Below are positions 2,444 through 2,829 of a DNA stretch of 4,971 nt, piece by piece. This stretch comes from a virus (taxonomy: Duplodnaviria > Heunggongvirae > Uroviricota > Caudoviricetes): the IMG/VR virus record IMGVR_UViG_2698536476_000014; one strand, written 5' to 3'. Each line of letters begins with the position of its first letter. Positions within the stretch are counted from its first letter, which is position 1. The notes beneath the pieces were generated by a model. That model was not told the DNA's origin. It was given only the letters and a program-made list of their open reading frames with translations, and did not search any database. The translations under genes were made by a program, and so were the position numbers.

Positions 2444-2458
2444 CCAAACGTCTCTTCA
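2444..2458. repeat. 15-bp direct repeat CCAAACGTCTCTTCA, copy 1 (1 nt downstream of the orf113 stop)
   Basis: Exact 15/15 match to 2815-2829. Confidence 0.9.
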
Positions 2459-2459
2459 C

Positions 2460-2801
2460 TCATCCGAAGAAGCAGCAATCCGGGTTAGCACGCACAAGCT
2501 CAAGCGCATCAGTCAGCGAAAGTTCAGTACTGTACTGATGCCATTTCATATCCTTCCGCATCCAATAGATTTTCCATCTATCCAGAGAACGTATGTACTT
2601 GATTCTTGCTGATGGCAGGATGTTTGTTTCACCTGGATTGCCCTGCCACACGGGGCGCTGTTCGCCGATATCTATCGTTTGGTCATTGATGCTATAAACA
2701 ATATCCAGTTCATTGCGGATATGTTCAGGCGGCCTTATGCTTTCAATGAATTGGTGAACTTCTTTTTTTACTGCTTGATATTCAAGGTCATTGAACGCCA
2801 T
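2460..2801 (-). CDS. Hypothetical protein, 113 aa, between cI and the kinase module
   Basis: Strong SD (AAGGAGG) 4 nt before the ATG. The ORF is exactly bracketed by the 15-bp direct repeats. Composition is intermediate between the kinase module and cI. No domain recognised with confidence. Confidence 0.55.
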   Translation of the reverse strand: MAFNDLEYQAVKKEVHQFIESIRPPEHIRNELDIVYSINDQTIDIGEQRPVWQGNPGETNILPSARIKYIRSLDRWKIYWMRKDMKWHQYSTELSLTDALELVRANPDCCFFG

Positions 2802-2814
2802 CTATCCTCCTTAC

Positions 2815-2829
2815 CCAAACGTCTCTTCA
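2815..2829. repeat. 15-bp direct repeat CCAAACGTCTCTTCA, copy 2 (13 nt upstream of the orf113 start, 32 nt after the cI stop)
   Basis: Exact 15/15 match to 2444-2458. Confidence 0.9.

Follow-up and report, generated by a model that had tools for sequence, protein, structure and literature searches.

The stretch of phage DNA analysed here, IMG/VR record IMGVR_UViG_2698536476_000014, is 4971 nucleotides (nt) long and is called the window throughout. It corresponds to the immunity region of the Shiga-toxin (Stx) phage 933W, to which it is identical; positions 2300–3000 match positions 11513–12213 of 933W (NC_000924), and many Stx phages, at 100%. On the minus strand the repressor gene cI (2862–3569), which is of the 933W type and encodes 235 amino acids (aa) with a helix-turn-helix (HTH) region and an S24 peptidase, is followed by an open reading frame (ORF) of 113 aa at 2460–2801. 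This is L0084 of 933W, a member of the DUF3024 family and a candidate anti-phage defence protein. AT-rich cargo lies downstream on the same strand (891–2392). A 15 bp sequence, written CCAAACGTCTCTTCA on the plus strand and TGAAGAGACGTTTGG on the minus (coding) strand, is directly repeated on the two sides of the DUF3024 ORF.

The repeat is exact and occurs on the plus strand at 2444–2458 (copy 1) and 2815–2829 (copy 2), with a start to start spacing of 371 nt. Copy 1 is separated by a single base (2459) from the ORF stop codon (2460–2462), and copy 2 by 13 bases (2802–2814, GTAAGGAGGATAG) from the ORF ATG (2799–2801) and by 32 bases (2830–2861) from the cI stop codon (2862–2864). An earlier note on this DNA, made from the sequence alone, had described the ORF as bracketed by perfect 15 bp direct repeats with gaps of these sizes, and all of this is borne out. 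There is no third copy in the window, even with up to two mismatches allowed, and in the complete 61.7 kb genome of 933W the 15-mer is present at these two sites only. Exact direct repeats of at least 15 nt that are spaced by less than 1 kb number only seven in that whole genome. The short length of the repeat is the one point in favour of a chance recurrence without biological meaning. This explanation is already refuted and retains virtually no probability, because 0.01 matches are expected for such a 15-mer, none of 200 shuffled windows contained two copies, and hundreds of phage loci have the same 15-mer in a comparable position. The earlier note had likewise held a random recurrence at this distance to be very unlikely.

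Relation of the repeat to the lambda cI tail

The sequence TGAAGAGACGTTTGG is identical to the last five codons of lambda cI, encoding E-E-T-F-G (lambda, L001, 2232–2246, within the cI coding sequence at 2228–2941). The 3' end of lambda cI reads CAG TGG CCT GAA GAG ACG TTT GGC TGA (P-E-E-T-F-G-stop). The earlier note had not recognised this coding origin. Both window copies, on the minus strand, read E-E-T-F-G-stop in the cI frame, copy 2 ending with GGG TAA (the G and TAA at 2811–2814) and copy 1 with GGA TGA (the A and TGA at 2440–2443). Neither belongs to a gene, the open frames across the copies being 16 and 14 codons long. Both copies are thus non-coding relics of a lambda-type cI repressor tail. 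Published occurrences of the sequence, in the literature searched, are only as lambda cI cloning primers.

Copy 2 is part of a longer relic of about 40 nt, CATAGCTGGTAACCAGTGGCCTGAAGAGACGTTTGGGTAA (2811–2850, minus strand), which corresponds to approximately 11 codons of a lambda-type cI tail and a stop codon and is likewise non-coding; its lambda counterpart is GTTATCGCTAGTCAGTGGCCTGAAGAGACGTTTGGCTGA. Translated further, copy 2 gives …IAGNQWPEETFG, where lambda has …IASQWPEETFG. The extended relic starts 11 nt past the stop codon of the 933W cI and is in frame with it, and it is found at the same offset in 64 of 80 loci with a 933W-type cI. Copy 1 is a second relic of the cI tail, trimmed to exactly 15 nt. 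The resident 933W-type cI is unrelated to the lambda-type tail relic that lies behind its stop codon. An origin of the relic from an in-situ frameshift of the 933W cI was considered and dropped, since the gene already encodes a counterpart of that last strand, VEYVAGILKQS, before its stop codon. A Chi site was also considered and dropped; the relic region has GCTGGTAA, not GCTGGTGG.

The stop codon of the 933W cI is UGA followed by C, and the in-frame relic behind it continues for 16 sense codons, LHRHIAGNQWPEETFG, before a TAA. UGA followed by C is reportedly, after Poole et al. in 1995, the weakest termination context in E. coli. Readthrough at this site may give the 933W repressor a lambda-type C-terminal tail. 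The probability that a relic behind cI is in frame and open by chance is roughly 0.15, and the idea of readthrough may mean nothing.

Exchange of cargo behind the repressor gene

A scan of IMG/VR for the exact 15-mer found at least 120 loci, with 132 exact occurrences listed. In 118 of the 132 the 15-mer is followed by any one base and a stop codon, at the end of a cI gene, in a relic of a cI end or at the end of a cargo ORF; the other 14 are chance matches in unrelated contigs. Real cI ends among the listed matches include the lambda type of about 237 aa, a 216 aa type ending in …VVKAQWPEETFG, and others. The remaining listed matches in a cI context are short non-coding relics behind other cI types or the copy behind DUF3024. 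When the 118 listed occurrences were clustered, at least 17 upstream and at least 37 downstream classes were obtained, which reassort freely, and the lambda cI end alone is joined to at least 20 different downstream sequences.

Since a scan with the exact 15-mer is biased toward intact copies, the analysis was repeated on loci chosen through their proteins. Two samples of 80 loci each were selected by the cI protein, one for lambda cI (at least 98% aa identity) and one for 933W cI. Directly after the stop codon, 22 different sequences are found in the lambda-cI loci. The relic is present in the 64 933W-cI loci noted above, where 18 different sequences come next; the other 16 loci lack it or have lost an internal part of it, as in CCAGT^ACGTTTGG, where the loss is of 11 nt. 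Fourteen downstream classes, with at least 98% identity over 200 nt, are common to the two samples. In these classes the identity ends 2–9 nt to the left of the 15-mer, and over the next 150 nt upstream it is 0.25–0.29, which is the random level. Homology breakpoints against GenBank phages fall at window positions ~2436, 2813–2823 and 2834–2853. These breakpoint positions, and the combinatorial reassortment of the flanks, are direct observations.

A short conserved sequence is therefore found at a gene boundary in many phages, and its two flanks reassort independently, both as in the boundary sequences of lambdoid phages. Among the possibilities raised in the earlier note, that of a module boundary is supported by these findings. 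The cI-tail relic is the usual joint at which the repressor gene meets the variable accessory slot that extends from cI to N.

One locus, L302 (IMG/VR 3300045988_073544), has a 933W-type cI and the relic, followed by the lambda cI-rexA intergenic sequence CTGATCGGCAAGGTGTTCTGG…, which is identical over the 200 nt compared. As judged from its sequence, this natural hybrid shows exchange between the lambda and Stx-phage immunity types at the cI-tail junction.

The gene that lies between the two copies in the window also behaves as a separate unit. A homology search of the 113 aa protein, as had been proposed in the earlier note, gave a full-length match to DUF3024 (Pfam PF11225; E=1e-30, 106.5 bits with a cutoff of 24.9, positions 2–112 of 112) and a full-length match to PADLOC PDC-S43 (E=4e-41, 137.6 bits). 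The DUF3024 protein is the sole member of the PADLOC candidate defence system PDC-S43, and its role in anti-phage defence is that of a candidate. Fifty homologues were examined, all from Enterobacterales where the source organism is named and nearly all 113 aa long. A search of PDB sequences with the protein gave no significant match. The 13 nt spacer GTAAGGAGGATAG (2802–2814, minus strand) consists of the third base of the relic Gly codon and the stop codon, then the Shine-Dalgarno (SD) sequence GGAGG (2806–2810). This lies 5 nt upstream of the ATG and is as strong as had been claimed; the spacer is kept before DUF3024 in all close homologues.

Alignment of filled loci (the window, L013, L053 and L003) with the empty locus L122 (alignment A1) places the difference at exactly one 371 bp block, at 2459–2829 or equivalently 2444–2814 on the minus strand, made up of one relic copy, the SD and the ORF. 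With E standing for the 15-mer, the arrangement in L053 is lambda cI-E-DUF3024-E-ATGATGGATGGTCGCAGAGATGCTCG… and in L122 it is cI-E-ATGATGGATGGTCGCAGAGATGCTCG…. Further empty sites are L092, L038 and L050. The ORF is thus present or precisely absent between copies in several contexts, which is what the earlier note had proposed to look for, and this polymorphism is observed directly. When a simulated cI-relic-L0083 junction was compared with E. coli genomes, the 25 listed matches were all filled (two pieces, 786 nt); the precise absence of the DUF3024 unit appears, from the alignments, in other contexts and not with the query of 933W context. The cassette is present in 30 of the 80 933W-cI loci and in 6 of the 80 lambda-cI loci, and 227 of 5426 complete E. 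coli genomes (~4%) carry at least 80% of its length.

A sample of 68 loci chosen by their DUF3024 protein has the gene in 16 pairings of 8 upstream with 10 downstream contexts, which supports the suggestion in the earlier note that the ORF is independently exchangeable. The two copies are identical to one another in 27 of these 68 loci. The junction GGATGAG|TGAAGAGACGTTTGG recurs in DUF3024-selected loci: 42 of 70 have an exact downstream copy, and 64 of 70 have one with no more than three mismatches. The junction GGATGAG|TGAAGAG is joined to at least three downstream modules (D1, D6 and D25), each of which is also found directly behind a cI tail. With several modules behind one DUF3024|relic junction, crossovers in the downstream copy are the simplest explanation.

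The single copy at empty sites and the two copies at filled sites are also the pattern expected if the repeat were a target-site duplication, or an att-like core, left by site-specific insertion of a mobile DUF3024 cassette. This origin is highly improbable. Terminal inverted repeats, a transposase and an integrase are all missing from the 371 bp unit, and the same cI tail serves unrelated cargos and also bounds cargo that is not duplicated. The left junctions of the downstream copy differ among DUF3024 lineages (G|TGAAG, TGA as the start of the relic, GCC-, GGGCC- and GTGGCC-). Nor does the segment resemble a transposon, its only ORF being DUF3024 and the ends of 2459–2814 having no inverted repeat.

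It is likely instead that the relic is a passive short-homology crossover point at which cargo is swapped behind the repressor, with DUF3024 as one such cassette. In lambda the slot between cI and N holds rexAB. The cI tail with its stop codon is the fixed left edge of this accessory slot in lambdoid phages. Real cI tails are kept constant by selection on the encoded protein while circulating in the same hosts, so that phages with a tail or a relic share 15–24 bp of identity there. Crossovers within the shared stretch, through phage Red, RecET or RecA, could then bring any immunity module together with any cargo. The DUF3024 gene is a promoterless cassette of 371 bp, consisting of the SD, the ORF and one relic copy, between two crossover points. 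A crossover at the upstream copy would remove the cassette, and one at the downstream copy would keep it and change the sequence that follows. Phage 933W encodes exo, bet and gam of the Red system. RecET recombines homologies of 5–13 bp, and short conserved flanks can mediate the exchange of modules (PMC2327257).

The relics could, alternatively, be passive scars only, the debris of independent illegitimate recombination events that replaced immunity modules, with the 15-mer never a substrate for crossover. The joints would look sharp only because recombinants with a damaged cI or cargo are lost to selection. Mosaic joints in phages are classically attributed to illegitimate recombination (PMC2327257). 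The left edges of the relics vary continuously, from about 60 nt to fragments of 7 nt, such as …TGTTTGGGTAAGGAGG in phage SE1, and relics decay and can be lost, all as scars would. However, each of the 14 classes of cargo is found behind a real lambda cI tail as well as behind the 933W relic, with breakpoints that agree to within 2–9 nt, and one and the same DUF3024|relic junction leads into several downstream modules. So many illegitimate events at one spot are far less parsimonious than exchange through a shared sequence, and an origin of the relics as scars alone is considered unlikely.

Other versions of the DUF3024 gene and other cargo are found in the slot. The Sakai-type DUF3024 (82% aa identity; L011, L029; GenBank H157–H174) is interrupted by an in-frame TAA, …AAAGATATGAAATAACACC…, aligns in two pieces and is therefore a pseudogene in VT2-Sakai, phage 1717, PA-series phages and others. 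Two tiny hydrophobic ORFs, MREYLIVGVVTLLSVVAIVLMVA (23 aa) and MRIGIAFPVIVFIVAVAFMAWFVVGGYATPGG (32 aa), lie between cI-tail relics in L064 (7550–7652) and L112 (3989–4217). Their periods are 87 nt and 126 nt, they form arrays of the type cI-E-orf23-E-orf32-E-hairpin, and the stop codon of the mini-ORF is the TGA that opens the 15-mer. A degenerate orf32 is present behind DUF3024 in Salmonella phage SE1.

Persistence and possible function of the relics

Divergent DUF3024 genes are all trailed by recognisable relics that have been trimmed to various extents. The relic is TAAGAGAAAAGAGATTTAGGAGATGA behind the Sakai-type pseudogene, TAAGCCTGATGAGACCGCTTGAGG in Salmonella SE1, TGAAGAGACGTTCGGGTGA in L194, TAGGGGCCGGAAGGGACGTTCGGGTAA in L195 and TAAGTGGCCTGAAGAGACGGTCG in L199. 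The DUF3024 proteins of L194, L195 and L199 have 56–63% aa identity, with an identity of 0.40–0.46 at third codon positions. With third codon positions near saturation, a neutral 15-mer should be unrecognisable at such divergence. Repeated re-seeding of the relics from real cI tails is favoured over selection on the relic as the probable cause of this persistence. The variants of the relic mirror those of real tails, PDEIFG in SE1 being that of the real cI of L192 and the TTC codon for Phe being found in L194 and L195. Substitutions in the relics fall at third positions of the cI frame in 11 of 16 cases (p=0.004); as the variants share changes, and the count for unique changes is only 6 of 11, this lean is no more than suggestive. 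Relics are also lost in some lineages, and in close relatives they do not diverge more slowly than their flanks. The relic of L003 has 2 mismatches in 15 nt against an overall divergence of 2.7%, and in L003 and L004 it diverges at least as fast as the flanking sequence. The relic is, by these comparisons, dispensable and decaying.

A selected cis element, in the pRM transcript or at the DNA level, would be another reason for conservation, acting in translational coupling or re-initiation, in RNA processing, or as the recognition site of a recombinase or nuclease. In its favour, the relic flanks three unrelated cargo ORFs (DUF3024 and the hydrophobic 23 aa and 32 aa mini-ORFs), it is better conserved than synonymous sites beside distant DUF3024 homologues, and many downstream genes start a few bases from the relic stop codon (…TTTGGGTGATG…). 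Folding of each copy with its flanks gave z about 0, indistinguishable from shuffled sequence, and no Rfam family was detected at the repeat even with permissive E-values, so that the regulatory or RNA element raised as a possibility in the earlier note is unsupported. A 7 bp hairpin given between the ORF end and copy 1 was rejected as an RNA element, being weak and not conserved in other lineages. The relic is missing, or has the internal 11 nt deletion, in the 16 otherwise intact-looking 933W-cI loci, and in L003 and L004 it is no slower to diverge than its flanks. The match of variants to coding cI-tail variants and the third-position lean point to descent from coding copies, and no dedicated recombinase is linked to the relic. 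A cis-acting role is very unlikely on this evidence.

A related reading is that the relic is a maintained cassette-boundary signal of a promoterless, integron-like array of small genes, for defence or of membrane type, after the repressor (cI-E-cargo-E-cargo-E-terminator). Selection might maintain it because it eases exchange or helps the next gene to be expressed, or a phage recombination function might recognise it. This is decidedly unlikely, and has a place here because the relic brackets three unrelated cargos and is recognisable near DUF3024 genes with synonymous sites close to saturation. On the favoured reading the 15-mer is not an independent element, and the relic most likely has no sequence-specific function.

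Several points weigh against the relic as a passive crossover point. Its use in crossover is deduced from breakpoint positions. For Red or RecA to recombine efficiently, 15–24 bp is a short length. The relics beside the distant DUF3024 genes match at 12–14 of 15 positions, which makes selection on the relic possible. The protein-selected samples mend the bias of the scan only for close relatives of three proteins.

The modular theory of phage genomes is said to go back to Susskind and Botstein in 1978, and the 'boundary sequences' of HK620 are reportedly those of Clark et al. in 2001. Boundary, or linker, sequences at the module junctions of lambdoid phages are a concept cited in PMC2327257, and such sequences are an accepted account of some of the mosaic joints in these phages. 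The relic resembles them in being short, conserved at a gene boundary and placed between unrelated neighbours and reassorting flanks, with homologous crossover as the proposed mechanism. It differs in that the conserved stretch is the coding tail of cI, selected as protein in some phages and a non-coding relic in others, and in that two copies bracket a cassette. The interval from cI to N is described as a mosaic diversity hotspot with exclusion genes that are expressed by the prophage (Degnan 2007, as cited in PMC8585504). The known hotspot (PMC8585504, PMC3564112) and the locus described here share the slot, transcription from pRM with the repressor, and superinfection-exclusion or abortive-infection cargo. 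In contrast to the hotspot as known, the left edge of the slot is here set to the nucleotide, as the cI tail and its stop codon, and the relic is reused as an internal boundary. No description of this relic or of relic-bracketed cassettes was found in the literature searched, and Degnan 2007 may hold part of it.

The earlier note had taken the ORF for an independently acquired moron. Like the morons of Juhala and Hendrix, the DUF3024 gene is carried by some phages and cleanly missing from the same position in others, and is probably expressed from the prophage. Unlike them, it has no detected promoter or functional terminator of its own and its composition is that of cI, so this part of the proposal did not stand. 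Integron cassettes are also promoterless ORFs behind one strong promoter, with a recurring short boundary sequence and arrays of 2–3 units, whereas the window has no attC-like fold and no ORF for an integrase of the IntI type, nothing points to site-specific excision, and the recurring sequence is only the relic of a gene tail. The DUF3024 gene is an operon-embedded cassette, and not a strict moron, an integron cassette or a transposon insertion. The case is a real but fairly ordinary one of phage mosaicism and reveals no new kind of system.

It does supply an anchor, precise to the nucleotide, for one of the most active sites of exchange in lambdoid prophages, the slot with rexAB, stk, bstA-type and other anti-phage genes expressed in the lysogen. 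Cargo that directly follows the …GAAGAGACGTTTGGN-stop motif, whether this is real or a relic, can be easily catalogued across the prophages of Enterobacterales; a small sample gave more than 35 different downstream sequences behind the motif. The shared stretch CCAGTGGCCTGAAGAGACGTTTGG is a concrete substrate on which to ask what minimum of homology suffices for phage recombinases in nature. DUF3024/PDC-S43 is also flagged as a repressor-operon gene in the 227 E. coli genomes, 933W-type Stx phages included.

Neighbouring genes, composition and expression signals

The gene order in the window is N' (53–235, minus strand), a 54 aa ORF, stk, L0083, L0084 and cI, with cro, cII and O' on the plus strand. 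The AT-rich cargo that is joined to copy 1 consists of L0083 (RuvC-like, 1931–2392) and the Ser/Thr kinase gene stk (891–1937). Stk matches the PADLOC kinase models mad6 and PD-T4-6. L0083 has no match in Pfam or PADLOC, and only PHROG 3875, 'RuvC-like', was found for it. The GC content is 0.43–0.45 in the DUF3024 ORF and 0.44–0.46 in cI, and drops to 0.32–0.37 at copy 1 (~2400–2450), on the L0083/stk side. The intermediate composition ascribed to the ORF in the earlier note is wrong; the compositionally foreign part is the AT-rich kinase module, not the bracketed ORF. L0083 and stk overlap by 7 nt (1931–1937; stk ATG at 1935–1937, L0083 stop codon at 1931–1933), which suggests possible translational coupling.

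No sigma-70-like promoter site was found in the gap from cI to the ORF, nor does a terminator with a T-run follow the ORF. A predicted hairpin, GGTCGCA-GAGA-TGCGGCC (GGTCGCAGAGATGCGGCC), lies just after copy 1 at 2417–2434 on the minus strand. The same hairpin with a T-run is located directly behind the cI tail in empty-site loci and in many phages, where it is scored as an intrinsic terminator (L038, 1313–1340; a 12 bp stem and T-run, z=-3.2). In 933W the hairpin is followed by TGATTCT in place of the T-run. This fits with readthrough into L0083 and stk and with the published transcription of stk from pRM in lysogens (PMC3430580, PMC3564112). 'Res', the phi24B homologue of L0083, is likewise expressed in lysogens (PMC4651098). 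The same-strand position between cI and stk, together with the published stk data, suggests that the DUF3024 gene is within the pRM-cI-stk operon and would be transcribed with cI and stk in the lysogen.

The window is bounded by inverted repeats of 56 nt that are 98% complementary, at 1–56 and 4812–4867, which, with 4868–4971, are the ends of an IS3-family element. These ends truncate N (53–235) on the left and, within the iteron region, the O gene on the right. Of the 15 best-matching E. coli records listed, not one has the whole arrangement of 1–4971 in a single piece. A 19 nt inverted repeat, 95% complementary, at 402–420 and 3909–3927 corresponds to the annotated nutL and nutR of 933W (L002 2102–2168 and 5584–5629, the window coordinate being the L002 coordinate minus 1701).

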